In this document: positions 2,849-44,200 of the stretch, piece by piece
Layout of the letters: every line of letters begins with the position of its first letter
Numbering within the stretch: the stretch's first letter is position 1
NCBI GenBank assembly: GCA_945877765.1
Contig: CAMDWQ010000001.1
Coordinates: 86,253-150,252 of the forward strand
Source of the DNA: Candidatus Omnitrophota bacterium
GTDB lineage: Bacteria > Omnitrophota > Gorgyraeia > 2-02-FULL-51-18
Direction of reading: 5' to 3'
Length of the DNA: 64,000 nt
Notes under the pieces: generated by a model
The model's database searches: none
The model's input: the letters and a program-made list of their open reading frames with translations, nothing else
Told to the model about the DNA's origin: nothing
Made by a program: the position numbers and the translations under genes

Positions 2849-2938
2849 GTCATTCCCTATGTCATTCCCGAAAGTTTTAATCGGGAATCAAACCTGCACA
2901 TGATCCCCGATAAGAGATCTCGGGGATGACACTGTGGG
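2849..2938. repeat. Foldback (MITE/RPE-like) repeat copy
   Basis: Near-identical to the 2402-2480 unit: gtcattcccgaaagttttaatcgggaatcaaacct...atgatccccgataagagatctcggggatgacactgtggg. Confidence 0.8.
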
Positions 2939-2953
2939 TACTAGTAGAGACAT

Positions 2954-5218
2954 TCAGTTACCTTTCATCAAATTCAGTGCACTGCCCGCTTTGAACCACT
3001 CCACCTGTTCTTGTGTAAACGAGTGTGTGAGCTCAGCGGTATCTTTTGACTCGTCCGCATGCGTTATCGTCAACTTGAGATTTTTTCCGGGCGCCAGGTC
3101 TTTTAGGCCTGTAATGGCCAGCTTGTCATTTTCTTGAATTTTTTCATATTCCATAGGATTCGCAAATCTCGCCGCCAAGACTCCCTGTTTTTTGAGATTG
3201 GTTTCGTGAATGCGGGCAAAGCTCTTGGCAATTACGGCTTTGCAGCCCAAAAATCGCGGAGACATTGCCGCGTGTTCACGGCTGGAGCCTTCTCCGTAAT
3301 TCTCGTCTCCAATGACAACCCACGCCTTGGCGTGCTTTTGATAATCCCGTGCAACCGCAGCAGGGGGCATCTCTTCGGCGCTTTTGAGCCAGTTCTTCGC
3401 TGTGCCAGGTTTGCTGGTAAAAGCGTTGTTGGCGCCTAGAAACATATTGTCTGAAATTTTATCCAGATGACCGCGATACTTTAACCACACACCCGCAGGA
3501 GAAATATGATCCGTGGTGCATTTGCCTTTGGCTTTAAGCAACACCAGCATATTTTCGAAATCATTTCCGTCCCAAGCTTTAAACGGTGCCAACTTCTGCA
3601 AGCGGTCGCTTGAGGGGCTAATCACCACCTCTTTATTTTTTCTCTCGTCCATCGGAAGCGGCGCAATAAATCCCGCCTCACCCGGCGCATAACCTTTGGC
3701 GGGCAACTCGTCCGCGTGGGGGGCTTCCAAAAAGATTTCACGTCCATCCGCGGTTTTTAATTTATCCTTCATCGGATTAAAATCCAGCCGCCCAGCAATC
3801 GCGTAAGCCGTCACAATCTCAGGGGAACCAATAAACGAAAGCGTTTCGGCGTTGCCATCATTGCGTGCTGGGAAATTACGATTAAACGAACTCACAATGG
3901 AATTGGATTCTCCTTTTTTGATGTCATCACGTTTCCACTGGCCGATGCAGGGACCGCAAGCATTCGCTAGCACCGTGCCGCCAATACTTTCAAGCGCTTG
4001 GAGCTGTCCGTCGCGGCGAATCGTATTTTGAATTTGATCGGAGCCCGGAGAAATCAAAAAATAGCTGGCCGCTTGGATGCCCGCTTTCTTGGCCTGCGTG
4101 GCAATGTTGGCAGCGCGTCCTATGTCTTCATACGAAGAATTGGTACAGCTTCCGATGAGTGCCGCTTTCACGGTGACCGGATAGCCCTTCTCTCTGACTT
4201 CTTGGGCAAATTGGGATACAGGCCGCGCCAAATCCGGCGTGTGCGGGCCGACGATGTAAGGCTCAAGCGTCGACAGGTCTATCTCTACCACTTCATCATA
4301 ATATTTCCTGGGGTCCTTTTCGACTTCCGGATCCGCAACGAGAAACTCGCGGTATTCATCGGCAAGTTTGGCGATACCTTCACGCTGAGTTGCGCGAAGA
4401 TAAGCAGCCATGCGCTCATCATAAGGAAACACCGACGTCGTTGCTCCGAGTTCGGCGCCCATATTGGTAATCGTGCCTTTACCGGTACAACTGAGCGACT
4501 TGGTTCCGGGGCCGAAATACTCGACAATTTTATCCGTGCCGCCCTTGACGGTCAAAATGCCGCAAAGTTTTAAAATGACGTCTTTGGCCGATGCCCAGCC
4601 ATTCAAAGAGCCGGTCAATTTGACGCCAATGAGCTTAGGACATTTGACTTCCCAGCTAAGTCCTGCCATCACATCCGCCGCATCCGCTCCGCCCACACCA
4701 ATCGCCAGCATGCCAAGTCCACCGCCATTAGGCGTATGAGAATCGGTTCCTATAATCAAAGCACCCGGAAATGCATAATTTTCAAGCACCACCTGGTGAA
4801 TAATTCCTGAGCCAGGCTTCCAAAATCCCATCCCATAACGCGCCGCCGCCGAACTTAAAAAATCATACACTTCACGATTAATCTCAAGAGCATTTTTCAT
4901 GTCCTCCGCCGCGCCGCTACGCGCCAGAATTAAATGATCGCAATGAATCGTGGACGGCACCGCCACCGTCTCTCGCCCCGCCTGCATAAACTGCAAAATC
5001 GCCATCTGCGCCGTCGCATCCTGCATCGCCACTCGATCCGGCCTTAAAATTAAATAGCTCTCCCCCCTCTTGAATTCTTGCGAGGCTAAATTATCCGCAT
5101 GCGCCGCCAATATCTTTTCAGCAAGCGTCAGAGGCCGCCCAAGCTTCTTGCGAAGCGCTTCAACCGCCGATTTAAATTTAGCGTAAACAGCTTTCACTTG
5201 GGCTTCCATTTCGTTCAT
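2954..5218 (-). CDS. acn: aconitate hydratase (mitochondrial-type, about 754 aa)
   Basis: Aconitase family throughout (Fe-S cluster Cys region [19 protein letters not shown], swivel domain). The track start at 5257 is a TTG. An internal ATG at 5218 (MNEMEAQVK) is preceded by aaaggtaaaaaa and gives a typical length. Confidence 0.9.
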
Positions 5219-5423
5219 TTTTTTACCTTTCGATGAATAAAATTCTTGTGAGAACAATGGTGGTTATTATATCACGCCCCGCCATCCCGAGCGAGCATAG
5301 CGAGGAGGAAGTAGCTCCCGCGAGCGTCGTAGGTTTGCAGCTTGTGTGATCAATAGACACTATAAATTTGACTAAAATTGCCCCACCAAAATTGCTTAAA
5401 TTTGATTTTTGACATTCTCCATA

Positions 5424-5533: not shown

Positions 5534-6313
5534 TTATTTATTGCCTCTGGGTGTGCTAGCTTTCCGCTTTGTCAGTGCCACTTCCACGTCAAATGTCCAG
5601 ATATTGAATGGAGCTCCCGCACGAGTATCATATTGGAGCCCCGCCCCCAATAGCTTTTCAATATAATGAATCATCTCTTTCTTGGCCTCTGAGGCATTGG
5701 CTTCTAACGCAAAGTTGTTCCGCACATAACCAATCGCCCCGATCAACACATCTACTATTTGAATGAACCCTTCAGGATGCTCGCCGCTAGAATGTCTGGG
5801 TTCCACGGTTGCTATGACATTCTTCAATTTAAGTTCCCTGGAAATCGAGGCATTTAAAGTTTTCTTAAGCACATCCAATCTGAATGGGTAGCGGTTCTTT
5901 TTATCATCCAACAAAATCAAAACATTGCTCCCATCCTCCTCAATCGCAAGCCTTTTGACAGATTGGAAAAGCAAGTGGAAAAATACTTTGTAAAACGAAT
6001 GCTCTTTATCTCCATCTCCATATTTTCTATATTCTTTTTTATAGGTATCAATCACATGCGCTCTAAATTGAAAATGATTGGCTTTTAAATGTTCAAAGAA
6101 CCATGCCACAAGCTTCTTGTATTTTTCAAGATAAGTTTTGCTTACTTTTGCCCACTTCACCTCACCCTGCCATTTTAATTGAAGGGATTCTTTTAAAGCT
6201 TTTAGTTCTTCGACTAAAAGAAGATGATTGTTCCTGGAAATAATAAGGGCGCCAATAATCAAATGCTTTTTATTAGTGCTACTTTCATCACATACGATTG
6301 TGTACTTCATCAA
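5534..6313 (-). CDS. DUF3800 domain protein
   Basis: N-terminal YTIVCDESSTNKKHLIIGALII matches the DUF3800 signature (hydrophobic-x-x-DES-G/S near the N-terminus). 259 aa. It lies in an AT-richer accessory segment. Confidence 0.65.
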   Translation of the reverse strand: MMKYTIVCDESSTNKKHLIIGALIISRNNHLLLVEELKALKESLQLKWQGEVKWAKVSKTYLEKYKKLVAWFFEHLKANHFQFRAHVIDTYKKEYRKYGDGDKEHSFYKVFFHLLFQSVKRLAIEEDGSNVLILLDDKKNRYPFRLDVLKKTLNASISRELKLKNVIATVEPRHSSGEHPEGFIQIVDVLIGAIGYVRNNFALEANASEAKKEMIHYIEKLLGAGLQYDTRAGAPFNIWTFDVEVALTKRKASTPRGNK

Positions 6314-6487
6314 TTACCCTCAAACTTTTTTTGGGGAGCAATTTTGATAATTATATCACAGGAAGATTTTAATAAGAGGTTCGAGCACCTCACACCTGCG
6401 GGGTGTGCCGCCGCATTTGGCGGTACTCCCCGGAGGTGTGTACACGGTAACACGGTGTTCAGTTGGATGTTGCATCAAATCCAGCAA

Positions 6488-6937
6488 CTACTGGGAGGGC
6501 GTCAAAACCTTTATCTCAAACATAAATTTTTTTTGATGAAAGGATATCTCTTCGACCTGCTCAAAAAAATCTCTCCCAAGAACCCCAATACTATGGTTAT
6601 TCATTTTCTCGGTAAAGGCTGCCTCGCAGGGAAAAACCCGCTCTTCGTTGTTGATGGAGATAATAATATTTATTTTGCGATAGTAACACTTCACGCTACC
6701 GCCAAAACCGGACCTGATGATGCCCGGAACTCCATCCACCACCACACCAATTTTTTCACCAAATGAGGAAGGAAACACAGAATGACGCGAACCGGAATCT
6801 ACCAGGGAGGGAAACAAAAAACTGGTTCTTATGCCCTTGTGCTCTATGGCGGTCTGGACCATCGGGAAATACACCACTTCTTGACTAGCGATAGGGTCCC
6901 CTATTTGGGTATAGGGAATTTGGTAGGTCTTGATCAA
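6488..6937 (-). CDS. retropepsin-like (clan AA) aspartic protease
   Basis: LVDSGSRHSVFP contains the D-S/T-G catalytic triad context of retroviral-type aspartyl proteases. 149 aa is typical of single-domain bacterial retropepsins. Confidence 0.65.
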   Translation of the reverse strand: MIKTYQIPYTQIGDPIASQEVVYFPMVQTAIEHKGIRTSFLFPSLVDSGSRHSVFPSSFGEKIGVVVDGVPGIIRSGFGGSVKCYYRKINIIISINNEERVFPCEAAFTEKMNNHSIGVLGRDFFEQVEEISFHQKKFMFEIKVLTPSQ

Positions 6938-7140
6938 AAGAAAAAAGAGATATCGGCGATATTAGGTACTTTGATCAAAAAAGGATTTGACTCACCCTTG
7001 ATCGTGGCTTCATTTAAAGCCTCATCCATCGTATTCCCTGATCCTAAAACGGTCTTTTCATCACGAGTAAGAGTTACCCACTTTCCTTTGAATGGCTCTA
7101 AAATGTGAGAGAGGTTGATAGGGATCATCGTGTGTTCCAT
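6934..7140 (-). CDS. small DUF5678-like protein, translationally coupled upstream of the retropepsin gene
   Basis: 68 aa. GKWVTLTRDEKTVLGSGNTMDEALNEA resembles DUF5678 small proteins. The 4-nt overlap with the 6488-6937 ORF suggests an operon. Confidence 0.4.
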   Translation of the reverse strand: MEHTMIPINLSHILEPFKGKWVTLTRDEKTVLGSGNTMDEALNEATIKGESNPFLIKVPNIADISFFF

Positions 7141-7361
7141 TTCTTAGGGATTAGGTACGTGCCCCAAAACTCTGTTCCACATCCCCTAATCTCTCCATAT
7201 CACGAAGAACTTCTAAAGAAGATTCTTTTACAAGAGCAGATTCCGTATGCAAGCATTTTTTCAGCATTTTACGATGGCTTAATTTATTGAAAAAACCTAA
7301 CGCTGTATTTCTATGGAGATTTCGTTTCATTTTCATCTGACGGGTACATCTTCGATATCTT

Positions 7362-7568
7362 TTAAGTGCCTACCGGAATCTCAACAAAAGAAGACTGTTG
7401 CATGCGAAACCGCGCCTCAAAATCATGGACGATAGCGCCGACAACTTTTTTGTTATCTTTGTGGTATTTAAGCAGGAGGCCGTTTCCCGCGTCCCGCGCA
7501 ACTGTGTTGGCCTGGTCTCCGAAAAAAACATACAGCGTATCTGTTTTGTCATCATAGGATATTTTCAT
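7362..7568 (-). CDS. DUF2283 domain protein (putative antitoxin-like partner)
   Basis: MKISYDDKTDTLYVFFGD is the characteristic DUF2283 N-terminus. 68 aa. Confidence 0.8.
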   Translation of the reverse strand: MKISYDDKTDTLYVFFGDQANTVARDAGNGLLLKYHKDNKKVVGAIVHDFEARFRMQQSSFVEIPVGT

Positions 7569-7900
7569 GTTAGGAAGTCCTTTGTCTCTTTAAACCACAC
7601 AATGTTGCCGCCCTTGATTTTATCGCTGATGTGCGCTGATTTTACGTGACTCTTCTCAACTTCCACATAAGCGACATGCACTAATGGCTTCTTTGCTCTT
7701 TTATGATAAATAACGGTATTCGGTAATTCATCCTCGGTCAATAATATTGGATCCTTCAATATAGCCTCTACAAATAGAAACGGCTCCCCAACATCAGGAT
7801 GAGACTGACGAATATGATCGATGGTGTGGTCATAAATTTTGACGGATTTCCCCTGAAAATCGACGATAACTCTAAAATCCTGGGATGTTTTTTCTTTCAT
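7565..7900 (-). CDS. DUF4258 domain protein (putative toxin-like partner)
   Basis: 111 aa, overlaps the DUF2283 gene by 4 nt. The DUF4258/DUF2283 pairing is a recurrent two-gene module. Confidence 0.7.
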   Translation of the reverse strand: MKEKTSQDFRVIVDFQGKSVKIYDHTIDHIRQSHPDVGEPFLFVEAILKDPILLTEDELPNTVIYHKRAKKPLVHVAYVEVEKSHVKSAHISDKIKGGNIVWFKETKDFLT

Positions 7901-8000: not shown

Positions 8001-9791
8001 TTACGCAGACTGTTCCGCCATGCGGGCGGCCTGAGAAAGGAGTCGTAGGGCGTTGTCTAGTTGCAGGAGAGGCAGAACCACGTAATGACTCAGATTGGGT
8101 ATCTCGTCGCCTTTCAAGGCTTTAATAAATGCCGCAATGTTACCAATCTTATGTCCCAAAAGAGTCTCGTAGACGCGAACTAACCTCTCGAAATAGCCCT
8201 TTCGCTCAGGAGTCAGCTCAGGAACTCTCGCCGCAAGCCTTGCGGCTCGATGAACGGCAGGATGCATAATGTCATTTTTATCCAATACTTTCACTATAAA
8301 GTGTCGAGCGGGGGTCTTGCCAATGATAGGCAGTTTGGCGGTGATTACTTTACCATCTTTAAAGCCGTCCATAGAAATAACTCTCACATTGTCTATGTCA
8401 TCCTTGTAGGGTTGGGGCAGGTCGGCTGGTTTGCTAATAAAAAGCTTCTGAACGTCAACCGGTAGATCATAAACCTCCGCCATCGCCTGTTCAATTTTCC
8501 AAGAATCTCCACCAAACAGCACTACAAAATTGGGATCCTGTTTCTTTTCCAGAATATAACGCCTTAACAAATAAGTCAGGTTGGGACCAAAAGCCTCTTG
8601 TGGAAGAATATTAAGATCAAATATCTCTACCACTTTAGTCTGGGTGATAGATTCGGGGAGGTCCTCGAAGAATTCATTGACACTTCTATCAGCCTCACCC
8701 AGCATCCTCGTGTAGTCGGACATCGGTAGCTTCACCTGGACTTTCTCAGGACTCAGCAAATCAGTCCCAGCGGGGATAATATTCTTGGGATTAATGACGC
8801 GGGGCATTCCTAAGCCCTTGAGCCAATACCTGCCCTGAGCATCAAGCACCACATGTAAAAGGGTGTCACCCACCACTATATCCCCGGCCCTGGTACGGTT
8901 TTGTTCTCTGATCACGCGCGCAACAAACGTAACTAATTCGCTTTCTTGGGCGGCGGTGCGAGTACTTGTTGGGATAGAAGTAGCAGTAACTGGTTGGGTT
9001 GTAGGGGCAAGACGGGCGGCAGTCGCCACCACTTTTCTAACAAGAGCAGCTTCTTCACCGTCGACCTCAACAAACTCAAATTTCTTTCTAAAATCCGTGA
9101 GATTATTTGGTGCATTGATTGCAATAAACGGATCACCCGTCACCAGCCCCCCATCTGCCATCATGCTATAAAGCTTATCCCACACCGCATCCAATCGATC
9201 TTCCCAAAGCTCGATACGAATCACTCCCGATGCAAAAATCAGTTTAAACTGAGTACCGGTGGGGGGCTCATAATCTAAAATATTATCTCTGACCAAAGTA
9301 ATCCTAGATTTTACGTCATCTTCCATGCGAATAAACGCCCGGATTCTTTTAATTGTATTCTGTAAATCAACATCCAGCGACGTGACGTGAGTCGCCTGGG
9401 CATGCTCTATGAAATACCGCGTTTCGGAGAACCCATCACCCTCCCCTAGCACCAACACGCCGTTATTGAATAAAAGGTTCTCGAGATTATCCAAAGCCAA
9501 GCTCTTTAAATATGCGCTTATGGTTGATTCGAAACGAAATAGCGACATAAAAGACCCTGAACCATCCTGTAGAACGGACGCAGAACGGTCGAGCTCGTCG
9601 TCAGTACGTCGGGATAATTGCACGAGAGTGGCTTTTTCGGTCAGAACATACTGCCTTGAAGCGCTCTCATAACTGACGCTAAAAGCCTTGCGTTTGTTAT
9701 CCCAGCTATCAACGTGTTGGGCATCACCACAACAACAACGAATCCCGTCAATAGTGTTGTCGCCGATGTCTTTCGTCTGACACCCCTGCAC
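8001..9791 (-). CDS. hypothetical two-domain protein; N-terminal class-I SAM-methyltransferase-like fold, C-terminal domain of unknown function
   Basis: VLVLGEGDGFSETRYF (GxGxG motif I), VTSLDVD (acidic end of beta-2) and FKLIFASGV (beta-4) fit a Rossmann methyltransferase. A low-complexity linker ATAARLAPTTQPVTATSIPTSTRT follows, then roughly 330 aa with no recognisable family. The track start is a GTG, so the true start is probably internal. Confidence 0.45.
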   Translation of the reverse strand: MQGCQTKDIGDNTIDGIRCCCGDAQHVDSWDNKRKAFSVSYESASRQYVLTEKATLVQLSRRTDDELDRSASVLQDGSGSFMSLFRFESTISAYLKSLALDNLENLLFNNGVLVLGEGDGFSETRYFIEHAQATHVTSLDVDLQNTIKRIRAFIRMEDDVKSRITLVRDNILDYEPPTGTQFKLIFASGVIRIELWEDRLDAVWDKLYSMMADGGLVTGDPFIAINAPNNLTDFRKKFEFVEVDGEEAALVRKVVATAARLAPTTQPVTATSIPTSTRTAAQESELVTFVARVIREQNRTRAGDIVVGDTLLHVVLDAQGRYWLKGLGMPRVINPKNIIPAGTDLLSPEKVQVKLPMSDYTRMLGEADRSVNEFFEDLPESITQTKVVEIFDLNILPQEAFGPNLTYLLRRYILEKKQDPNFVVLFGGDSWKIEQAMAEVYDLPVDVQKLFISKPADLPQPYKDDIDNVRVISMDGFKDGKVITAKLPIIGKTPARHFIVKVLDKNDIMHPAVHRAARLAARVPELTPERKGYFERLVRVYETLLGHKIGNIAAFIKALKGDEIPNLSHYVVLPLLQLDNALRLLSQAARMAEQSA

Positions 9792-9871: not shown

Positions 9872-10552
9872 TTAGTTTTTTGGTTGCCTATAGGATTTTC
9901 CCTCCAGTGTTAAAAAAGTTCCTTTAAGATTCAATCTGTCGAGAATTGCTGTGGCTGTCGCAGGGTCAAAGATCTTGCCCCACTGAGAAGGAATGAGATT
10001 GGTCGTCACAAGGGTAGATCCGATCTCCGAGCGTTTGGAGATGATCTGAAAGATATCGTTGGCCTCTTCCAGAGACGGGAATACGTAGCCCAACTCATCT
10101 AGGCACAAGACTCTGACGCTTGCGTAGTACTGTATAAGGCTGTGTTTACTCCTGGAATTCTTGAGTTTTCCCACAAGATCGAAGCAACTGATAAAAATCG
10201 CTGTTTCGCCCTCCTGGATCGCTTGGTAACAAAGCGAGGTGGCAAGATGTGTCTTTCCCACCCCTGCCGGACCCACCAGAACGAGATTCTTGGCCTGCTG
10301 TATCCAGGGGGATTTGGCAAACTCCAAAAAAGATTCCCTTGGAAGCTTGGGGCTCATCTTCCAGTCGAAGTCTTGAAGACACTTGATTCTTTTGATGCCT
10401 GAACGATTCAGAAGGTATTGGATCCTCCGGCATTTTCTCTGACGGCACTCCTCCTCAAGGATGGGTGTTAGTGCTTTTATATCCTCTACAGAGAGGTCTT
10501 CGGGGTTTGATACGAACTTCAAGTCCTTCCAGAGTTCAGTTATTTTGGTCAT
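9872..10552 (-). CDS. istB: IS21-family helper ATPase IstB
   Basis: Walker A VLVGPAGVGKTHLA, Walker B VLCLDELGY and the IstB_IS21 family throughout. Start placed at internal M (MTKITELW), which overlaps the istA stop. Confidence 0.9.
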   Translation of the reverse strand: MTKITELWKDLKFVSNPEDLSVEDIKALTPILEEECRQRKCRRIQYLLNRSGIKRIKCLQDFDWKMSPKLPRESFLEFAKSPWIQQAKNLVLVGPAGVGKTHLATSLCYQAIQEGETAIFISCFDLVGKLKNSRSKHSLIQYYASVRVLCLDELGYVFPSLEEANDIFQIISKRSEIGSTLVTTNLIPSQWGKIFDPATATAILDRLNLKGTFLTLEGKSYRQPKN

Positions 10553-11963
10553 ATTCTTCAAGGCTCCTTGGTTGGTAGTGAATATCAAGAAGTTTTTGGT
10601 CGCTTGGGAAGACTTGGTCCGGATCTTTCTGTGCTGGCAGATTCAAAAGGCTAAGAAGAGCTTTTGTTTTATAGGTCCCCATAGACAGAAGTTCGGCAAC
10701 CGCCGAGACCAAGACAGAACGGTTGTGGTTTTTAAGGAGCTTAAAGATCTGATAAGCGCATTCAAGGCGCGCCGAATCATCCTCTCCCTGGGCCCTTAGG
10801 AACTTATAAAACACTGGCTCCATGGATTCGATAAGCCTAAGGATCCTTTGACGCTTAAAAAGAGGGGTTCTATTTAAAAGACTCTCTATGTGAAGAGGAT
10901 TCTGGAATATTTTGTGTTTTTCAAAAGATCTTTTATGCCGTGCCACAATTTTTGAGGCATGCGTAATCTCGATTCTATCCGGATAAATCAAAAGCCCGCA
11001 AGGCTTCTGGGCCAAAGAGGATGGGACGGAGTAGCGATTGGTTTCAAACTCGACAAGTGCTGTTTTTGAGACCACCCCTTGCGCGATTCGCCGCGGCGCG
11101 AACTCGATGCTGGGAAGTTTTAAAAGATTTTCTGATTTAAGCATGTCCATAGGCATCTTACCGGTGGAGCGGTGTATCAGGCTGTTGCGTCCTACAAGCC
11201 ACAGCCTGAAGCACTCGTTTAGGTCTTGGGCGTTTTTAAAAACCTGCCCGTATAGAAAGGAGGCTCTCACATCGCGTCCTAAGCGTTCGACTCTGCCTTT
11301 CTCATTGCCTTTGTAGGGATTGCAGGCGTGGATCTTGAATCCGTAGTGTCTGGCGAATTCCAAGAACTGCGGATTGTATTCGATCTTTTCCGGTGTGTGC
11401 TTTAAAACAACGCTCTTTAGATTGTCATACCGGTGGGTGCGGGCAAGACCGTTTAAGTGCTTGAAGCATTCCAGGTGTCCGTCTAAAAAGAACTCAAACG
11501 ACGTCTTGGGATAAAACTTCCCCCAAGCATATCTGGAATACGAGAGTACGTACAAAAAGAGAGCGACCCGTCCCACATTTTCAAGGTCCGCGAAGAACCA
11601 GTCCACCTGGGCCTCCTCTGAAGGCATAAAGTCCAGGGCATAATAAGTGACAGGCTTTTTTACTCTCCAGGATCTTGTGAAGCGCTCCACACTTGAGAGA
11701 CTACCAGCATAACTATATCCTTGGAGTCTTTTGTAAATCTGAATCGCCTGAAGGCGCGGATACTGCCGGTACCACTCATCCAGAAGATGCCGGTAAGCTT
11801 CCAAGGGTGAGGATTTCTGAGGATTTTGAGAGGGACACTGTTTATCCAGGATGCGTTTTAATCGCCTGTATCCGATATGAAGATGTCCGATCACCTGGCG
11901 GCGGCTTAACCGTTCGACGTCCAAGAGGTAGAGGATTTTTTCTTTCAGCGAGGTATCGTCCAT
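10536..11963 (-). CDS. istA: IS21-family transposase IstA
   Basis: 475 aa with an N-terminal HTH followed by a DDE integrase-core region. Typical IstA size and position upstream of istB. Confidence 0.9.
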   Translation of the reverse strand: MDDTSLKEKILYLLDVERLSRRQVIGHLHIGYRRLKRILDKQCPSQNPQKSSPLEAYRHLLDEWYRQYPRLQAIQIYKRLQGYSYAGSLSSVERFTRSWRVKKPVTYYALDFMPSEEAQVDWFFADLENVGRVALFLYVLSYSRYAWGKFYPKTSFEFFLDGHLECFKHLNGLARTHRYDNLKSVVLKHTPEKIEYNPQFLEFARHYGFKIHACNPYKGNEKGRVERLGRDVRASFLYGQVFKNAQDLNECFRLWLVGRNSLIHRSTGKMPMDMLKSENLLKLPSIEFAPRRIAQGVVSKTALVEFETNRYSVPSSLAQKPCGLLIYPDRIEITHASKIVARHKRSFEKHKIFQNPLHIESLLNRTPLFKRQRILRLIESMEPVFYKFLRAQGEDDSARLECAYQIFKLLKNHNRSVLVSAVAELLSMGTYKTKALLSLLNLPAQKDPDQVFPSDQKLLDIHYQPRSLEEYDQNN

Positions 11964-30906: not shown

Positions 30907-33900
30907 ATGGATGAACAAAAAAAATTCAAAACTCAATATGGAAATAGACTGAAAGCAGTCTCTGCCTTCCTGGTAGTAGCTTTTTTATCTCAGGACGTGG
31001 CTTATGCGATTGGCGGCATTAATTTTAATGCAGATTCCGCCAAGGTAGCCTCTAATCCAATAACATTCTCAAATGACACCGCCATCGTCCGTAAATTTTC
31101 TCAACGTTCGGACGAAATGGTGATCAACATCCAAGACGCCCACCAGAAGCTGGGGGCACAGCAAAGCATTTCCTCTATTCTCGATCGGCTTGTCTGGCAA
31201 TACGATCTTAAGCTCATCGCGGTAGAAGGAGGTAGTGGGGATGTCGATACCTCTGCTCTATCTAGTCTGCCCGATGAGGCGCTCCGGAAAAAAACGGGTG
31301 AGCACCTTCTCAAGGAGGGCCTTATTTCAGCCGCTGAGTTTTATTCGATTGTTTCGGGTAATCAAGTGCGTCTCTACGGCGTCGAAGAGGATGCTGTTTA
31401 CCGAGAAAATTTGGAAGTCTTTAAAAAGTTAATTGACGATAAAAAAGACCTTCGGCGCGAGTTGACACTTTTGCAGGGCGCGCTACGCTCGCTGGAAGAA
31501 AAAATTTATAGCCCCGCGCTCAAGGAGCTTGAAGCCAAAAAGATGAAGCATTTCCGCGGCCAGATGAAGTTTGCCGAGTACTGGGAATATTTTAGTAGCC
31601 TTGCGGCGCGTCTGGGGATTGCATTGGACCCATACCCCAATCTTGAAAAAATTTCAAGCACGGTGGTCTTGGAAAAAAATATCAATTTCTCTGCCGCTTC
31701 CGCAGAGCGTGAGTCTCTTATCAAAAGACTTAGCGCTGAATTACCAAAGCTATCGCTTGAGAAGCTTATTTTTGCTCTGCTTGAATTCAAACAAGGGAAA
31801 ATGGCCTCTGGCAAGTTTTACAAGAACCTCGTGGAGATGGCCGAAGCGGCGTCGATTGAGCCAACAGCATACAGCAATATGAGCACTTATTCGCGGTATG
31901 TATCACTCTACGAGGCGATCGATCTTTTGGCGGTATTTGATGAAGCGGAGCGTTTTGAAAGTAAAATCCGGGAGGCTCTTTTTGCCAACTTAGAGGAACG
32001 CAATCTCTGGGTCCTGACCCATCGAGTGGGCATTGTTTCAAGGCTTTTGGATGTGACGCTGGATTCGGCGGATTATGAACAAATCAAATCCCACAAGGCT
32101 GATTTCCAGATCAAGAAACTAAAAGAAGATCTTTTTTCTCTGGGTGTGCGGCATGGATTTTCCACAGCAGGGGACGTTGATTTTGACCGTCTTGAAAAAA
32201 ATATGCCCCTGGCTCTGCGCTTTTATGAACTAGCGTCGCAGAGAAACCAGATTCTTTTAGCCAACACACTTAAAAAAATGCGCCGGGAAAAAATTCAGGT
32301 GGCGGCACTCGTGACAGGAGGTTTCCATTCGGACGGTATCGCCAAACTCATGGAGGAAGAAAAAATTTCCTGTCTTGTGGTGATGCCCAAGTTTGATGAG
32401 AAGTCGCCGGACCGGCCTTATATCTCAGTATTAACTAAAAAGCCTAAAGAATATGAGCAGCTTTTTAAGGATTCTGATTTTTATCTGACCGCGGAAGTAT
32501 TTTTTAATCATTTTCCTGATTACGGCGAAGATCGGTTGGCGGCGCTGGTGGCAAGTCTAGACCGAGTCAGCGGAAAAAATCATTTCACCTCAGGCGTGGT
32601 CCATCAACGCGATTTTGTCAGGCGCTGGGTGCGTGGTTTACGCGCACGGACGCGTGATATACAAAACCCTGCGGTTTCTGTCAAAAAATTAAATCAGGCC
32701 CTGCGAGGTGTGTCTGCAGTCAGGCGCGAAGGCGATTTTTACCGTGTGAAAGTAGGCGAGCGAGAATTTAACGTACCACTGGATCAAGCTAGCCGTGAGA
32801 TTGATGGTAGTCCGATAGAAATCACAGCGGTCAAGGCGCCCGCTTCATTTTTGATAGAGACCGATAGCCGGCAAGCCACTGCCCAAGACGTCTCGGCGTT
32901 GGTGAATCAGTTTTCATCCAAAGTTTCTGTGTGGACGATGCCTGGTTCCACGCCAAGAACGGTGCGGGTTGCTGTCAATCGTGAAGTGGAGCGGTTTGAA
33001 AGGGCGCGGAAGGTTCGCTTTACTCCCCAACAGAAAAGAAGTTTTCAAACGGTGGGCGCGCGTCTATGCGGGCCGAATCTTACCGCCCGGCTCCGAGCGC
33101 TTCCTGAGAATCAACAGCCAAGTATTCGATTCCAGCCGTCTAAAAAGCCGTCGATCGATGTTATTCGATCTCCTCGACAAAGAGAAGTTGTCCGGGCACA
33201 GCTTGAGATTGCCGAGCTTCGTGGAGGGCAGTCGGGAGGCGCTGCCATCATGGCCCTTGATTCCAAGACTGGGCATGTGGTGGTTGTTTTTGGAAAAACT
33301 AAAAAACGCAAGCGTGAGAGTCCCTCTGTGGCCGTGGATGCGGCCGTAGAAAAACTTGTTTTAAAAGCAGCTAACGCCGGGATTGTCAGTCTTCCGGAAT
33401 ATGACGCCGAGATGTCTCATTTGCGCTGGGCCACTGGTGGTGAAAGTACCTGGGATAATGCTCAGCCACACTGGCATGAAGAGCCCAAAAACGTTGCCGT
33501 TTTTGGAGTTTCCCGTCAGGAACACGGGGGTCTCAAGCTAGGAAGCAAGATTATGACCGTTTTTAATATTATCCAACACAACGGCGACCTGGATTATCTG
33601 AAAAAATCATGGCTTGTTAACGGTATTCAACAGGTGGTGACTTTGCCTTTCAGAAAAGCTCGCGAGATTTATGTCAGGCTCATGCCGCGCTCCAAATCAC
33701 GAGGTACGTCCGACTCCAAAACGATCGCCGAAGACGTTGATTTTGAGCTCACCCAAGGGCAGGTTTGGAAATCGGTGCGTTATGCTTATGGAAAAAATTT
33801 TCATGACAATAGCCATCAAGATCTCCCTTTTAGTGAAAAAACGATCAATGATGCCTCTGCGATTGCCACCAGATGTATTGAGGAGGTTGGTCTGGATCTG

Positions 33901-36900
33901 GGGGATCGGTTTTTCAATCCTGGCGCAGTCACGCTAACCGATGCCAGTCCAGAAGCCGTGCTCGCGGTCAAACAGAGAGTGTTTGACCGGTTTAGAGACG
34001 AAAAAATATTTAATAAAAACTCTGAGCTTGAAGAATTTTCTGATGCTTTCACCAAGGCATTTTTCTATCACGACATGGCTTTTGTGATGCGTTATCTTAG
34101 CTTTGCTTTTGTGGGCACGGCGGTGGTTAATGTTATGTCGACGCTTGAGCCGCGGTGGGGGGTATTTGCCAAGACGCAGTCTTTCTCGATTGGTTTTAAC
34201 AGTGAGGGTGTTCTAGGAGCCGCCGAGCCCGAAGCGGTGACGGTACCCCTCATGCAAGATGGGGATTCAACGGCGCGGCAGATGTTTGTCCCCGATGGCT
34301 ACTACGGGACGATTGAGCAGGACCCCAGGGCGAACAATCTAATTCGTTTGCATGCCCCTTTGGTTGAATTTGACGATCTCTACCAGAGGCCAGCACCTTT
34401 ATCCGAAGGAGAGTTACACCTTTTTCCTGTCATTGGCAACCCCAAAATTGAAGTCGCCTCGGGAGATATTCGCCAGCTGGCCAGTGTGGAAAATAAAAAT
34501 GCCATCGAGGACATTCCTTCGGTGCTTAAGCGCGTGCGCGAATCGGTATTGCCCGGCGGCCGCAATCGAAAAGCACTCGATCATTTAAAAGCGCTCATCA
34601 CACGACAGGCCCAGGAGTGGATTTCGGATGAGGAGACGCTGATAGCCAAACATGCCCAAGAAGGCCGGGTGCACGAAGCTCATAAGGGAGGAAACTACAA
34701 TCTTGTTTTGTATGGCTCTGATTTTAATCTCGATCTGATTCGCCGTGTCGCCGACCAGATGCATGGCGGTATGATGGATTTGAACGTGGCTGTCATGGAT
34801 TCGGGAGAGCTTGTAGAGCTTTTTAAGAAAAAAGCCGCCGGCCGTGAAGTGCCTATCGGACCCAACACGATATTTCTAGCGGTCAGTAACTCGGGTCAGA
34901 CGCAGGCGGTCAAAGCCGCTCATAGCGAAATAGTCAAAATGCAGGAGAGGGGCCAGCTCAGAGAGGGAAACAATCTTGTTTTGACGCAGAAACTTTTCAA
35001 CGCGCTTAGCTCGGAAGGGGGCCAGGGCTATCAGCTTGAGGATGAGGTTTTGCCTTATACGTTTCTTAACCTAAGCCACATCCGTCCAGACGGTAGTATT
35101 ACCCGACGCAATTCCGAAGCAGCCAGCGTGACCACGGCGGCGACGGAGGCTGTGCTGACTGAAATGATGATCGGTGCTTACCAGGCCGTGAATGATTTGG
35201 CGCACAACTCTGCGCAGAATCCACAACAGCTAAGACCCTATAGACTCGCCAAAGATTTAACCAGCGAAGATTTTTTGGCTTTCCGTGAATTCCAGCTAGC
35301 TCACTATGAACAACAGGCGGCCAATCGCATCGGTGTCGATTCCGAAGGTCAGCCCATCACGGATTCGCCCGACCAGAAGGCACTCGGTCTGGAAGTTGAG
35401 TACCGCACTCAGTCGGTGACCGAATGGATCAAGGGATTTATGATATTCAATCTTGGCTACATCGCTTTGATTGCGTGTGTGTTGCAACTTCCTCTTTTCG
35501 GAACGGCACTGGGAAGCATTTTCAACGCCCGTTTTGACGGTGCTCTTGATGCAGTTTTCTACTTATCAGGTTTTTGGCTGACGGTGGTTTTGATTCGCTG
35601 GTGGGAGGGGCGTCCCTTGTGGGATCGTATCTTGCCTCGCGTGGAAATATTCGCCGATCACGTGGGTTATTCGAGAATCATCGAAAGATTCAATGTGGCG
35701 CTTCTTGCCAACGCGCAGGGTTTCTTGAGTCCGCTTTTTTATTCGGCGAATGTGGTGCGCGATGTATTGCACCGCTATTCGATTCGTGGCTGGCGCGGCG
35801 TCTTGTTTTATATTTATAGTCCCGACGAAACCATGGGTTTAAAAGAAGCCGGGGATGCGGACTCCGCTGGCATGGTGGCTAGCCAAGTGCGTTTTAACAC
35901 GTTCAATGCCGGCGGCCCGCACACGCATAAAATTCTTCTACAAAATTCTGCGTACAACCGTGGCATGTCCAAAAAAAGCGGTCACCAAGATGTGGGCCTG
36001 TCAGACGTTACCGATGAATTGAAGAGGAAATATAGCGGCAAAATATCCGAGACGATGCAACACTTAATCAACCGCCGCTTGGGGGATCTAAGCAATTATC
36101 TGATTCCGGAAATCGTGATCGGCTACCGGCGCGCGGTTAATCTCTCGCGTTTTTTTAATCATGTGCTGGACGAAATTTTCCTAAGCTCTCTTGTGGGTAA
36201 GTGGCCGGCTTCCGTGGTACGAAAAACTTTGGTGCTTGTGGGTTTTGGATGGTTTCACGAGACGTTTCCTATCGGCGAAAGCTCAGGACGCGCGGGGATT
36301 CTTTCTACCTCTCACCCGGTGAACTCAAGCCTTCCAGGTGAAGACTCCGCCCGGATGTTGACTCGACGGGAAGCTGCTCAACAAAACCGTAAAAAAGTTT
36401 TAAGTGAGCTTGTCAGTGCTGGCGCCAAGGAAATGGAGCAGTCTCAGATTTTGGAAGAGATAGAAGCTGAGGCCATTGTAATCCAAAAAGTAGCTGAGCG
36501 TACCTATCAGAGAGAAATTGCAGAGGCGGAAGAAGTTTTTGCAAATAAGGTGAGGACGATAGAGGAGCATTTAACTAACGCAAAAGCTTTGACAAATAAT
36601 CCTCTTATAGACGATTCTTTCTCCCCAAGTCTTGATGCGAGAGCGGATCGTGCTCGCGAAGCGGCAGTGGCAGTGAGGGAAGCCACGATGGAACAAGCGG
36701 GAAAAAGAAGAGAAGCGGCGTCAGAAAATGCAATTTTGGACGCGGCTTCACCCAAAATCAAGGCGCTGAAAGCTAACCGGCATTTGCCTGTCCCGGGGAA
36801 TCCGGATCGTATCGAGCTTAGCCAGACATTTGACGTGGTGCAGGCCGATGGGGGCATGGATGTCTATTTTCCTGGTGGAAAAAGAATCTCATTTAGTCTT

Positions 36901-39900
36901 GCGCCCGGCGGCCAATATTATCAAGGCGACAACTCACACCCTTCGGTGAAAGCGGTACGGCAGGTATACAAGGGACAACCAATGCTCGTTATTAGTGGAG
37001 ATCTTTCTTCGGTATGGAAAGAGCATAATCCTGAATATGATCTTGTGCTTCCTCTCGTCGACCAGGGTTCTGCTACCGGAGCTCGTCTGAGTAGCGGCGC
37101 TTTTCTTATCAAAAAAGGCATGCTTTTAGACCCAACCGAATTGGTAAGACCGCAAGAGGTAATCCCAAATGAAGTGTCGGGCAAAGCATATCTAGTCAAA
37201 AGATCCCCCGATGCTGTCGTCGCGGAGTCTTCGATCCGTCCATTCACAAGCGAGCCTTCTGCCGCGTTAAAGAGTGTCATTGCTAAACGTAAAGCATGGT
37301 TTTCAGAAGGAGCGCTCCGTTTATTAGGGATATCATTTCTCTCCGTTGTCATCTGGATTTTTGTGGATATGAACAGCCGCTCAACTAGAAAATCGTTAAG
37401 CACTTCAGCGCATGAAAATAATCCTCCGGCTGCCGCGGCTCTGGAAGAAAAGCCTTTAGTGCCAGAGTCTTCCCCGGTCGTCCCCTCGATAAACCAGGTG
37501 CAGGTTGTGGCAGGGGAGCACTTAAGAAAGGACTTGGCATCCGTGCTAGAAAAATCAAAATCGGAAGAAGAGAAAGCCGAGGAGCTAAAAGCCGCAAAAG
37601 AAATAGCCGAGACGGAACTGGCTTTGCTGGAGCAAGAAAAAAAACAAACTCAAGATGAGCTTGCGATTGTCTTTGCCAAAGAGCAAGTGGCAGAAGAAGA
37701 AAAAAATTCTGCTAGCCATGCACTGGAGGCGGCAAACACCCAGCGCGAACTATTCATCAAGCAAGCCTCACTCGTGGATCAGGAGATAGCGGCCATGGAC
37801 GAGGCGCAATTGCAGAAAGGTGCGGATGTACCGGTTAGTATCAAATCAGAAAGAAAAAAATTGTCGGCCGCCGATCTTGATCGGGCCGCAAGATCTACAG
37901 AGGAAGTTTTGAAATTCCAACCCGCTTTAAGTCCTTATACAAAAGAGCTTCTGTCTAACGGTGTGCTTCACAAGATCAATGAGAAATGGTCTTTTAAGCG
38001 ATTTGAAAGTCCTCAAAGAACCACTTGGTGGCCGTTGACCGAGCAACATCTTGAAGGCGTTAAAACACTTGAGCAGCATTGGAGAGATTCACGTCAAACG
38101 CTGACCGATGCTGGAGTCAACCGCAAGGAAAATGGCGAGTTTTGGGTCTCGGTAGATGGCACCAATTTCAAAATGCCCTTATTGGGAACCGATTTAGTAG
38201 GCATTTATTATCCCCAGAATAAAACAAAAGGTCAGCCTCAACTTTATTTTGTACAACTGGGCCGTGCGGCTTCTGCGAAAATCACACAACAAATCGCTAC
38301 CGAGAATTCTTTGGCGAGAATCGAGGCTGAAAAGAAAGCCCAGGAAGCTATCGAGAGTCACCGTCTTTTAATCGAGAAGAAAGCAGCGATTGATGTTCAA
38401 CATTTAGTGGTCGAGCAATCGATCAAGAGTTTTGGTGAGGAGATTCAAACAGCGGACGAAAAATGGCTAGGATTGAAAAACAAAGAGACCGAGCTCCAGC
38501 GGCTGATTCATTCTATTCAGATCGAAGAAGGTCGGGAAAAGCTGTTACAGCTTACTCACGAGGAAGAGAAGTCGCGTTCCGATGCCGATGAGTTGAAGAC
38601 TCAAGCGAAAAACCTCCAGCGGCAATTAGACGAAGCCCAAAAAAATATTCAATCAACAGAAAAGCCGAACACCTCAGAGACAACGCCGCCCGCCACTGCT
38701 TCGGTTTCGGAGCTTGCACCGCTTTTCAAAAAAGCTCTACAGGCTGATAATTTTATTCAATTCAGAGATCTTGAAAATAAATTTCTGGAACGCCTAGCCA
38801 AACTAAAACGAGGCGACAAAGACAAATTTTCTAAAGATGTCTTGGTGCTGCGCCAATTTCGCCAGTGGCACCTGTCCGTGAAGCGGATTAATGAGGCGAA
38901 GGCCCGAGCAAAAAATGCGGCAGCCACCGGTGATCTTGCGGCTTATCGCCGGGCACTCGGGCAATTTTATAATCACTTGGAAGTTTTGCGCGGTGTCGAA
39001 GAAAAGCTCCCGCCCGGACACCACTTTGTTAACTTCGACAAGGCGGCCAATAGCATTGTTTCGGCGGGAAAAGTATTTGGGGGTCGTAGTCCCGCGTCAC
39101 AGAAAATTGCCCGTCAAATTTTATCGCTTGCCGTCGCATCGACGGCGTCGGGAGGCCGTCTTGCGGCATCTTTTTCAACGGTAAACAACAGGAAATTTAA
39201 TCTTCTATTTCTGGTACCGCCGGGGGTCAGTGTCCAACAATTCTCGCGCCAAAATATCGATTTTAGAACCAGTCTTGGTCCAGCGGCATCGCGATTTAGC
39301 ACGCGCTACGCGCCAACGAGTGTTTATACCGAGCGTTTTCTCCGAGATAAAAATTACCCCGTGGATGCTATTTTGGACAGCACCTCGTCAACGCCTGAAA
39401 GTACTTTGCTACTTTTGACCAAACTTGCCGAAACGGATGCGCGGACGTTTTCAACACTCTATCCTTTCGTACAGCGTCTTCTGGCTCGTCCGGAAAATAT
39501 TTCTCGCTTGTCTTGGGCGGAGGAAGCGCTTCTGGCGGTGTGGGTTGAACAAACTCTACCCAATCCTGCTCCAAGGAGAACATTTGTCTCATCGGGACGT
39601 CTAGTCGCTCAACCTGAAATATTAACCAATCAAGCCGAGCAGGGCGGGCATTCTTCAGAAGTGCTTGCCTCGATACTGGATCAGGCGATGGCTCATACGA
39701 TACTTGCAGAAACTAAAGCAGAAAAAAATTCTGCACGGATCGACCTTCAAACGGCAACTGAAAATATTCTTCAATATCTTTCCCCATCATCCGCCGAAGA
39801 CGGAAGACTCGTATTTTCCGGCAAAGCCAATGCTTTGGCGCTTCAACTGGCTTCGACACAGCGCTCGCGCTATGCGCTTGTGGATCCCAGCTATCGCGTG

Positions 39901-41298: not shown

Positions 41299-44200
41299 AT
41301 GTCAATCGTTGAAAAATTTGCTTTTTACCTGTTTATCAGCCATATTTTATGCATAGTTAAGCAATCTTATGTATGGGGTTCACTAGGCTATAAACAAGGG
41401 GATTTTGTATTGAATAATCGTAGTCTTTTAATAAGACATATCTCATTGGTGCTAATCGCGACTTTTTTGTGCCAAGAGTTGTCTTACTCAGCACCTGCTA
41501 TTCTGACACCAGCCGCACTTAGCGATTCCGTGGCTTCCTTTCAAGCCCCCACTGAGTTTTGTTCCCTGAAAGAATTTCACCAGGGGCAGGTAGGCAAACC
41601 CTTGATCATTCATATCCAGGATGCCCACTCCAATCTTTCCGGCCAGGAAAATCTCGCTAAGACCCTGGATCAAATCATGACCAAGTACAGTGTCTCCACT
41701 GTGCTCGTCGAGGGCGGTGGCACTGACGGCACGCTGGATCCTCTCAAGCAACTAGCGTCCCCTGAAATCATCCGGCGTATCGCCAAAAAGTTACTCATCG
41801 AAGGCAAGCTTGCAGGCGAGGAATATCTAAATCTGACTTCGGATCACCCAATGAAGATTCAGGGAATCGAAGACATGACCCTCTACAAAAAAAGCGTTGA
41901 AAACTATGCGAAGCTCGCCGATAGACGTGAGGCGATACAGGACTATCTGTCGGTTATTGAAAGATCTGCCGAGAAACTAAAGCGTAAATTATACCCCCAA
42001 GAGCTAATTTCCTACGAAGCGCAAAAGCAAAAGGACACGGATGGAGCTCTGGGATTTAAGTTCAAAGAACTTTTGAGCCTGGCAAAATTAAAAGAGGTGG
42101 AGATCACCAATTTCCCCAACCTTCAAAAACTGTCAGCTCTCGAGGAAAAGGAAAAGAGCATTGATTTCAATCTTGCGAATTTGGAACAGGCGGCGTTGAT
42201 GGAAAAAATCAACACAACGTCATCCCCGAAATCTTTAATCGGGGATCAAACCAAGTATGATTCCCGATTAAAACTCTCGGGAATGACGGTAGATCAATTT
42301 ACCTTCTTTCGTAACATTTTAAATATCGCCAAAGAAAAGAACATTGCCACTGAAGAATATCCCAACCTTCTGCGTTATTTTAATTATTTAAAAGACTTCA
42401 CCGATTTAGATCTGGAAGAAGTCCTAAATGAGTTTGAGCATCTAGAGGATAAAGTCTACGTAGCATGGCTCCCTAAAGAGGACTCGCGCCTTCTTCGCGC
42501 CATTGACCGCTACCTCGCCCTCTTAAAAATTGCTTACCGCATCCAGATGTCCACCAAGGATTTTGAATTCTTTAAAGCCAACGAGCCTGATTTTTCTACT
42601 GCGTCTTATCAGGCATTTTTGAACCGAAAATTAATAGAGCTTGGGTATTTTGAGGATGTGATTCCGTATAAGAATATCTTGGAAGAAGGCAAAAAAGCGT
42701 TGGAGGATTTTTATGATTCGGTGAGCCAGAGAGACCTTGCGTTTATTCAAAACACGAAACGGATATTGGGAGATTCTGTCATCCCCGCGAAAGCGGGGAT
42801 CCGTTCATCACTCGGTGCAGATTCCCGCTTTCGCGGGAATGACAACGCTAACATAGCTGTCCTCATCACTGGCGGTTACCACACGTCTCACTTGAAAAAA
42901 CTTTTTCAACAAGAAGGTTTCTCCTATGTAGTTCTGACACCGATCGTGACCGCCGAGACCAACCAGAAAAAATATGAAAATCTCCTTCTCTCAAGTGTTC
43001 GGAAGGAATCTAAAACAATCGAGGTCGTGCAGGGAGAATCCAAGCAAAATAAAACCTCAGTTCAATTGGATGTAGATTTATTAAAGATTGCAAAAAAAGA
43101 GGGTGCGCGTTTTGCGGGGGCGGTGATGACGCCTGCGAGGCTTGCTCAGACGTTGGAATCGTTCGGAGGATTAAATGACAGAGCGCTTAATACAATTCAA
43201 AAGGAATTCGCGGCAAGACTCGCGAACAACATCTCCGAAGAGACAAAAACTCCGGCGGCGACGCGGTTGGCGAATGAGCCAATCGCATCCTCAAACAACC
43301 CCTCTAGGTTGGGCTTGGTAGCTTTAACTTTAAATCTCAGGGTGGCGCTGTGGAAGCTTTCCTTGTACAGCGGATTTTCATTTGGACGTCTGCAGACGTT
43401 TTCATGGTTGGAAAAAAACGATCAGGGGTATTCGAATAGCTATTGGTTGTCGCCTCGGAAAACCGCGACATGGCAGGGAAAACAGGTCATCCCAAATTCC
43501 CGTTTAAGAAAATCCGGAATTCAACTCCATACTTTAGCCCTGACGCTTCTTGATCTTATGGACCAGGGGTTGTCCGATCCTTTGAAAGAGGAACTATTTC
43601 GTTTACTGGAAAAATCCGTTGCGCAACATAATCTATTGGCGCAATCAGAACATGATCCCGGAGCCAAGATGTCTTTACCGCTTCTACTTGTCAGAGCAAC
43701 GAGTGTCTTAATCAGGCCGGATAGTAATTATGTTCGATTGTCGCGCGCCATGATGCAAGCACCGAAGCGCTTTTTAAAGCCCATAGCCATTCTTCAGCTT
43801 AGAGCTAAGCAGATCCATCTCAACTTTATTTATTTATCGCCCGACATAGTGGATTTTTACGCTAGCCATGAGGCTATAAAATTTATTCTTGAGCCCGAAA
43901 ACATAGAAGACCCAAAACTTAAAAGCGCACTCATTGGATTTTTGGCAGGTGTTTTTAAAAAAAAGACTTGGCAGGACCTAGCGAAGATGGTGGAGGAATA
44001 TGGTTTGGGAGAGTTTGATGTTAACTCTGACGATTCCAAAGCGATGTTTGATGATTTTAAGACTCTCCTAAAAAAGCATGATATCCAGATGGTGAATTGG
44101 ATGAAAAGCCAAGCGTTGTCGACGGGATTGGAAAGAATCGGGGTTCAGTTTCTTCCCTATCTTGAGTTGTCGCGGCTTCTCACATCGCATTCGGAAAATT

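Follow-up and report, generated by a model that had tools for sequence, protein, structure and literature searches.

Why would a bacterial genome carry a stand-alone aspartic protease of the retroviral type whose start codon overlaps the stop of a gene of only 68 codons, and does the DUF3800 gene that follows on the same strand belong with them? The question is raised by a 64,000-nucleotide stretch of a Candidatus Omnitrophota genome (GenBank assembly GCA_945877765.1, contig CAMDWQ010000001.1, positions 86,253 to 150,252 of the forward strand), hereafter called the window, whose numbering is used throughout. A first-pass annotation of this DNA had placed three minus-strand genes between 5534 and 7140, namely a DUF3800 gene, a clan AA protease gene and the gene of a 68-amino acid (aa) protein, and all three are real open reading frames (ORFs) at those coordinates. 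Homology was assigned by comparing sequences, profiles and predicted structures. Judged from these comparisons, the protease, which adopts a retropepsin fold, and the small DUF5678 protein are members of an undescribed, well-defined two-gene family, in which the small protein may be the cognate inhibitor of the protease.

The first gene of the pair (6934-7140, minus strand) encodes 68 aa from an ATG at 7140, and an alternative ATG at 7128 would give 64 aa. Its product matches the Pfam family DUF5678 (PF18929) with 26.4 bits against a gathering threshold of 23.2. The second gene (6488-6937, minus strand) encodes a single-domain, retropepsin-like (clan AA) aspartic protease of 149 aa with a DSG motif. 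Its TTG start at 6937 is supported by the encoded N-terminal IPYT motif, which is conserved among the protease homologues. The TTG start of the protease and the TGA stop of its partner share the tetranucleotide TTGA (6934-6937, minus strand), so that the 4-nt overlap read earlier is confirmed; this arrangement is the one expected for translational coupling of the two proteins.

The pairing is close to obligate. Among the first six protease homologues (22-27% identity), an ORF of 64-72 aa touches the protease start in five; four of these five small ORFs match Pfam DUF5678, and one of them had previously been left uncalled. The full set comprises 80 loci, whose most distant protease homologues have about 20% identity; 73 of the loci came from a metagenome scan with a closer sub-alignment of the protease family, and hidden Markov models (HMMs) of both proteins were used. 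With the flank present at 78 of these loci, a DUF5678-like gene was found in contact with the protease gene at 77, which bears out the proposal of the first-pass annotation that the small protein is an obligate partner of the retropepsin. The partners of distant protease homologues score 16.9-41.9 bits to DUF5678, and the single exception (locus L010) is a doubtful one, having a very divergent partner candidate. The partner lies directly upstream on the same strand in 71 loci; of the 57 distinct pairs with this arrangement, 31 overlap by exactly 4 nt. In the remaining six (L155, L157, L159, L161, L162 and L163), which form one protease subfamily, the genes are convergent, and the 3' end of the DUF5678 gene overlaps the 3' end of the protease gene by 4-17 nt (at L157, protease 2938-3372 on the plus strand and DUF5678 3356-3568 on the minus strand). 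This convergent, 3'-overlapping order indicates that the partner was kept through rearrangement. Furthermore, the two proteins co-diverge, with a correlation of their pairwise identities of r=0.81 that none of 2000 permutations reached.

No third gene accompanies the pair. Each Pfam family found among the 137 flanking genes is confined to one or two loci, and the flanks contain no consistent PADLOC neighbour, with sparse matches overall. The only PADLOC families matched twice with strong E-values are ShosA and PsyrA, probably the same two DprA-like (DNA_processg_A) neighbours that are seen in Pfam, and many of the other neighbours are housekeeping genes. The enrichment in defence islands that had been envisaged for the pair is thus not seen at the other loci. 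Since the flanks are unrelated between loci and the whole accessory block is missing from the matching site in L023, the closest long genome contig with synteny to the window, the pair is best described as a conserved, autonomous two-gene module with a patchy and apparently horizontally scattered distribution. Putative viral contigs carry it rarely: 3 of 2.9 million IMG/VR contigs carry the protease, and in two of these three the partner is also present, among ORFan genes.

What kind of enzyme is the protease? The earlier description of it as a single-domain clan AA protease with a VDSGS motif stands. It scores 22.9 bits (E 1.5e-4) against Pfam Asp_protease_2 (PF13650), under the gathering threshold of 24.3 bits, while some relatives pass this model in precomputed annotation (for example P0032 and P0109); it can thus be placed in a divergent subfamily that lies at the model's margin. 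A word-indexed homologue search with the protease returned nothing beyond the protein itself. A full HMMER scan of 1.84 billion representatives gave a family of 89 clusters at E<1e-3, whose members are nearly all stand-alone proteins of 90-175 aa, and no fusion of DUF5678 to the protease was seen among these clusters. In some of the longer members (P0054 and P0061), the N-terminus bears a signal or lipoprotein-like leader (e.g. ...FWLLSC), which means that the family includes exported proteases; the other longer members are repeat artefacts. In the family alignment D-S-G is invariant and the flap is rich in Gly (G77); the members also have an L-G-(R/Q/G)-x-G-F-F motif and a conserved N-terminal extension of about 20 residues with a P-Y-T motif. 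In the window protease these motifs read L-V-D47-S48-G49, G77 (GFGG) and L120-G121-R122-D123. All 45 intact distinct copies retain D47, S48, G49, G77, F108, G121 and F124, and this invariance indicates that catalysis is under selection. As a separate observation, locus L114 contains a second, divergent retropepsin-like ORF without a small partner (1264-1713, 149 aa, DSGAS), 1.3 kb upstream of a decayed pair.

The predicted structure leads to the same fold. The AlphaFold2 (AF2) model of the protease has a predicted local distance difference test (pLDDT) score of 85.8 and a predicted template modelling (pTM) score of 0.80. A Foldseek search of the model against the PDB gave 30 matches at E<=1e-3, with target-normalised template modelling (TM) scores of up to 0.69; almost all are retroviral proteases (PRs), the RVP domain of Ddi1 or the Rickettsia protease ApRick, and one match, chymosin, is a pepsin with two lobes from this clan. 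The PR of equine infectious anaemia virus (EIAV) reached E 2.3e-5, and the Ddi1 RVP domain, the PRs of feline immunodeficiency virus (FIV) and human T-lymphotropic virus (HTLV) and ApRick were also found, in a range of 2e-5 to 1e-3. With the family profile, the PDB sequences matched were Ddi1 (the best, E 0.0047) and the FIV, HTLV and human immunodeficiency virus (HIV) proteases, all with marginal E-values. Because the AF2 model matches retroviral PRs, the Ddi1 RVP domain and ApRick, we regard the retropepsin fold assignment of this modelled protein as secure. Together with the 89-cluster family and the profile matches, the fold also secures the family assignment despite the Pfam score just under threshold.

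The window protease can be compared with known proteases of this kind. Together with the HIV, FIV, EIAV and HTLV proteases, the Ddi1 RVP domain gives the best profile and fold matches and has in common with it the DSG/DTG motif, the Gly-rich flap and a G-R-D/N-type motif. Unlike these, the window protease is not part of a polyprotein or ubiquitin-shuttle architecture, and any regulator of it would be a protein with its own gene. Among bacterial stand-alone proteases, the Rickettsia protease APRc/ApRick (COG3577) and COG5550 ("predicted aspartyl protease") resemble it as single domains of about 120-150 aa with a D-S/T-G motif. ApRick (5c9f) matches its fold with E 1.7e-4 and TM 0.59-0.66, shows marginal sequence similarity to the family (E about 1.3 with the family profile) and is presumed to be a homodimer, as is the window protease. 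APRc is described as membrane-embedded and autoprocessing; no membrane or secretion signal was evident by eye at the N-terminus of the window protease. The window family further differs from APRc and COG5550 by its PYT extension and its obligate DUF5678 partner. Among phage protein families, the PHROGs scan gave a marginal "protease" match for the window protease. In PADLOC it weakly matches PDC-M08B (E 2.3e-7), and no PDC-M08A match was found in the small protein, in six of its homologues or in the neighbours.

The partner is a small alpha/beta protein, with homologues at 50-84% identity. Its AF2 model, built from a 5-sequence alignment, has a pLDDT of 81 and shows an a1-b1-b2-a2-b3 fold followed by a low-confidence tail. 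Searches of the PDB by sequence and by fold gave nothing significant (best fold match E 2.9). Among predicted viral structures (BFVD), the closest are the Pandoravirus DUF5678 proteins A0A2U7UG46 and A0A2U7UD66 (E 0.03-0.07), which support the modelled protein's assignment to DUF5678 and give no function. Pandoraviruses, giant viruses of amoebae, are an unexpected place for this domain.

The C-terminal tail of the small protein (...VPNIADISFFF) is uncharged and hydrophobic, and is of low confidence or disordered in the monomer model. Charged residues make up 6% of the partner's last 8 positions and 29% of its body, and FYWLIVM make up 58% of the last 4 positions, compared with 31% of the body. 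A conserved V/A-P-D/E junction precedes the tail, which itself is variable (...SALLY, ...AAFIY, ...GFVLI, ...FSLSP and, in the convergent subfamily, ...VSYAP, with ...ADISFFF in the window).

The junction and the tail invite a reading in which the small protein is a substrate. The DUF5678 protein would then be a regulator or effector controlled by cleavage, and the protease would cut near the ...V-P-[DE] junction, releasing or removing the tail on a signal, much as in an ImmR/ImmA-like switch. ImmR/ImmA and COG2856-Xre are regulator-protease modules; like the pair, they are two-gene units in which a small gene lies upstream of the gene for its cognate protease. Gene order and coupling fit this reading, as do the conserved Pro ahead of a variable hydrophobic tail, the strictly conserved catalytic residues and the co-divergence of both proteins. 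However, the known modules combine a Zn-metallopeptidase with a helix-turn-helix (HTH) repressor, unlike the aspartic protease and non-HTH alpha/beta domain found here. The small protein has no recognisable DNA-binding or effector fold, the flanks offer no conserved third gene as a regulated target, and the small gene survives the loss of the protease (see below), which would be odd if it were only processed. We consider such a switch unlikely, though it is the strongest of the rival readings.

The decay of the pair is one-sided. The protease gene is split or truncated next to an intact small gene at L110, L114, L133, L143, L144, L145, L150, L156 and L169/170. At L008 (1-595) and L009 (1-541), which come from a related organism, a small gene of 84% identity is followed by 12 protease codons (LIKTCQIPYTQD, then a stop) and then by a Fic-type gene, the N-terminal region of which was recognised as Fic-type by eye; the protease has been deleted or replaced at these two loci, with the small gene left intact. 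A small gene of 50% identity is followed by an unrelated ORF at L007, and both genes are broken at L174. No locus with an intact protease and a broken partner was found, though a search by protease pattern favours finding it.

This one-sidedness bears on a further alternative, in which the two genes form a maturation pair. The small protein would be a trans-acting prodomain or chaperone that folds or dimerises an ordinary protease, with no role in toxicity or conflict. Tight co-occurrence and coupled translation would follow naturally, and the many housekeeping neighbours, the rarity of the pair on recognised mobile elements and the signal or lipoprotein leaders of some family members, which point to uses outside conflict, agree with it. 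A helper of this kind fits poorly with the patchy distribution, the wholly unrelated neighbourhoods and the missing block at the syntenic site of a close relative. Pseudogenisation is frequent and always affects the protease, never the helper, and orphan small genes persist after protease loss. Taken together, a pure maturation role seems very doubtful.

We tentatively favour, at somewhat less than an even chance, a reading in which the pair is an autonomous bicistronic cassette and the small protein is the cognate, antitoxin-like inhibitor of a dimeric protease. In this scheme, the upstream DUF5678 protein and the downstream protease would be made by coupled translation. All retropepsins are homodimers in which each subunit provides one catalytic Asp, and the window protease would act in the same form. 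The small protein would bind the protease and keep it inactive, most likely by placing its uncharged hydrophobic tail in the substrate cleft, where the tail would mimic a product. The analogy is with retroviral PRs, on which product-like or flanking peptides act as inhibitors. Alternatively, the small protein might cap the terminal beta-sheet and so block dimerisation. Once the small protein was lost or degraded, the protease would be free to cut cellular or invader proteins, and the outcome would be toxin/antitoxin (TA)-like behaviour, such as addiction, a stress response or abortive infection. The sequences and models show the anatomy of the pair, the fold and conserved catalytic motif of the protease, the near-obligate and autonomous pairing, the co-divergence and the direction of decay; the dimer, the physical contact, the role of the tail as inhibitor, the toxicity and what sets it off are inferred from these.

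The comparison with type II TA modules supports this scheme in several respects. Like them, the pair has a short first gene whose stop overlaps the start of a longer second gene by 4 nt, forms an autonomous cassette with unrelated neighbours and a patchy distribution, decays mainly in the second gene and leaves some first genes as orphans, and lies in the window beside another small overlapping gene pair (111 aa and DUF2283) and an insertion sequence (IS) element. It differs from them in having a clan AA protease as the putative toxin and DUF5678 as the putative antitoxin, neither of which was found described as a TA component, and in a small protein without a recognisable DNA-binding domain. 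The suggestion of the first-pass annotation that the genes form a TA-like or protease-plus-inhibitor pair agrees with these data: gene order, 4-nt coupling, autonomy and one-sided decay fit it.

Several observations weigh against the inhibitor reading and keep it tentative. PDB searches with the small protein gave no fold or profile match of the HTH, ribbon-helix-helix (RHH) or AbrB-like type; since no DNA-binding fold can be recognised, autoregulation of the classical type II kind is not supported, though a missing match of this sort leaves room for DNA binding. The literature provided no precedent for a cytoplasmic retropepsin as a toxin. If breaks scale with gene length, the chance that ten of ten would hit the protease is about 0.02 (0.69^10), so that the bias is only moderately significant, and frameshifts in metagenomes can be sequencing or assembly errors. 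Co-divergence is equally expected from plain linkage. Phage and plasmid collections of cultivated organisms contained no protease homologue and only spurious small-protein matches, and with so few IMG/VR contigs patchiness is left as the sole argument for mobility. The window copy itself is atypical as well, at a near-invariant residue close to the active site. Residues 47-51 (6785-6799) read DSGSR, with Arg at the fifth position where 43 of 45 relatives have D (usually DSGAD); the second acidic residue of the D-T/S-G-A-D/E signature, present in the family as a whole, is therefore absent here. Residues 120-125 (LGRD-FF) are one residue short of the LGRxGFF motif. Given DSGSR and this one-residue deletion, the window protease may be an attenuated enzyme, or the first change may be a charge swap.

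A bolder version of the inhibitor reading holds that the pair is the founding example of a TA or abortive-infection family, in which the toxin is a retrovirus-type aspartic protease kept inactive by the product-like hydrophobic C-terminal tail of a dedicated small protein, widespread in uncultivated groundwater and soil lineages and occasionally viral. The lineages concerned are Omnitrophota and bacteria resembling the candidate phyla radiation (CPR), the latter judged from sample names and neighbouring genes only. We regard this as somewhat unlikely.

A literature search found no publication on the function of DUF5678, on PDC-M08 or on a retropepsin/antitoxin pair, and the one full-text mention of DUF5678 that was found is in an unrelated plant paper. 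The statement of the first-pass annotation that none of the three genes has an established function holds. Prokaryotic single-domain clan AA peptidases have been described as little known (PMC2642776). With prokaryotic retropepsin-like proteases nearly uncharacterised, the coupled partner joins two orphan families into one module, and the pair is a candidate source of a natural protein inhibitor of the retropepsin fold. If the TA-like reading holds, it would be a known kind of system with an unprecedented class of toxin.

Does the DUF3800 gene take part in this module? The gene occupies 5534-6310 on the minus strand (258 aa). The ORF can be extended to a TTG (5534-6313, 259 aa, the length given in the first-pass annotation); because an ATG is the very next codon, the 258-aa version used by gene callers is the likelier gene. 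The assignment to DUF3800 with a CDES motif was correct: the protein matches Pfam PF12686 with 31.5 bits against a cut-off of 21, and CDES lies at residues 8-11. Its C8-D-E-S (D9-E10) and Q185-I-V-D188 correspond to the DE and QxxD motifs known from DUF3800 proteins (PMC7736814). In PADLOC, the whole length of the protein is matched by the candidate PDC-M04A (E 2.3e-37), and among phage families it matches the unnamed phrog_3732 (E 1.6e-23).

The expectation that DUF3800 proteins recur in mobile or defence contexts is well founded. On a Phyllobacterium plasmid (L175), the A and B components of PDC-M04 are seen together, with A inside a type I restriction-modification (R-M) operon and followed by a 151-aa PDC-M04B, and in a Moorella phage a DUF3800 relative adjoins the integrase. 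In the literature, DUF3800 has an RNase H-like fold and is linked to defence and mobile genetic elements, being found in type VII retrons and, as TPR-DUF3800, beside Cas12a2/Cas12a3 (PMC7736814, PMC10910872, PMC13594972). The window protein resembles the retron type VII and Cas12a2/a3 proteins in its Pfam domain, N-terminal DE and C-terminal QxxD; unlike them, it has no reverse transcriptase, Cas12 or TPR domain nearby, according to the ORF list and domain scans of the neighbours. Of the PDC-M04 system only the A component is present: tblastn found no homologue or remnant of PDC-M04B anywhere in the window, and the non-coding DNA behind the DUF3800 gene is only 276 nt long, so the system is incomplete. 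Both PDC-M04 and PDC-M08 are candidate systems only, and no publication was found on either.

The 174-nt spacer between the protease stop and the DUF3800 gene separates the two genes further. Its RNA (6314-6487) folds with -56.1 kcal/mol (z = -3.68), and 1 of 200 shuffles was as stable. The fold (6376-6438, minus strand) has an extended hairpin rich in GC at 6391-6438, with a short hairpin (6376-6391) and a U-rich stretch after it, and has no Rfam match and no repeat elsewhere in the window. It is likely the transcript end of the pair, as a terminator without a clean U-tract, or it could be an unclassified RNA element of the kind found near DUF3800 genes. Eleven unexplained RNA motifs are linked to DUF3800 in the literature; none of these Rfam motifs (DUF3800-I to XI), nor any other RNA family, was matched near the gene or in the window. 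About 40 nt upstream of the DUF3800 start, an extended -10-like box, the 9-mer TGATATAAT (6350-6358, minus strand), was found by direct sequence search. The same 9-mer precedes the aconitase gene (5266-5274, minus strand); upstream of DUF3800 it is probably that gene's own promoter.

Could the three genes nevertheless form one defence system, with DUF3800 as an RNase H-like nuclease effector and the protease pair as its sensor or regulator? They are adjacent on one strand here and in six conspecific metagenome contigs, and DUF3800 and the protease both match PADLOC candidate models. These matches fall in different candidates (M04A, and weakly M08B), neither of which is complete here, and no DUF3800 homologue lies within about 3 kb of the protease at any of the 79 other loci. 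With the strong hairpin and the -10-like box lying between the genes as well, such a system is barely credible, and the grouping of the three genes as a single unit is contradicted by the neighbourhoods of the 79 loci. Given this lack of co-occurrence, the missing M04B, the hairpin spacer and the separate -10-like box, DUF3800 is an independent orphan, probably transcribed separately, and an incomplete defence candidate that only shares the islet with the pair. Setting it apart keeps a false three-gene "system" out of defence catalogues.

The block sits in an islet that varies between related contigs. The AT-richer setting noted before is borne out: the GC content is 0.37-0.43 in the region of 5.5-8.0 kb, and most of the aconitase gene has 0.48-0.53. 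The adjoining aconitase is closest to those of Candidatus Omnitrophota metagenome-assembled genomes, with 76% (L028) and 71% (L023) identity, and has one 91% match on a 2-kb contig labelled Planctomycetia. In L023 only about 100 nt separate aconitase from the end of a giant ORF upstream of it, with no accessory genes between them, and the genes downstream of aconitase seem to be in the order of the window, judged from ORF sizes and positions only. The block is present at 100% identity in six metagenome contigs, with all three genes adjacent on one strand. For one of these, L002, identity to the window stops at 9714: here L002 runs on with the first 97 codons of a 667-aa gene and with a giant gene (>3000 aa), and the window instead has an IS21 element (istB 9872-10588, istA 10536-11963). 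Because the identity breaks at IS21, the 596-aa ORF of the window (8001-9791) is read as a 5'-truncated gene with a fortuitous GTG start; its missing parts were not found elsewhere in the window. As L002 differs beyond 9714, where IS21 sits, the region of 5.3-9.8 kb is interpreted as a variable islet that holds the 111-aa and DUF2283 pair, the protease pair and DUF3800.

The second overlapping pair of the islet, also on the minus strand, comprises a 111-aa gene (7565-7900) and a 68-aa DUF2283 gene (7362-7568) with a 4-nt overlap, and may be TA-like. It had been annotated as a DUF4258/DUF2283 pair; DUF2283 is supported by a Pfam match, and DUF4258 is not, the 111-aa protein having no Pfam match at E<=0.1. 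Between this pair and the DUF5678 gene, one gene caller predicts a 61-aa ORF (7151-7336), for which the PHROGs and PADLOC scans gave no family. An NCBIfam scan of six genes in the block returned zero matches. Further along the window, two giant ORFs without a Pfam domain at E<=1e-4 lie on the plus strand (30907-40476, 3189 aa, and 41299-47784, 2161 aa), and a further giant ORF lies next to aconitase both in L002 and in L023, the relative from Omnitrophota.

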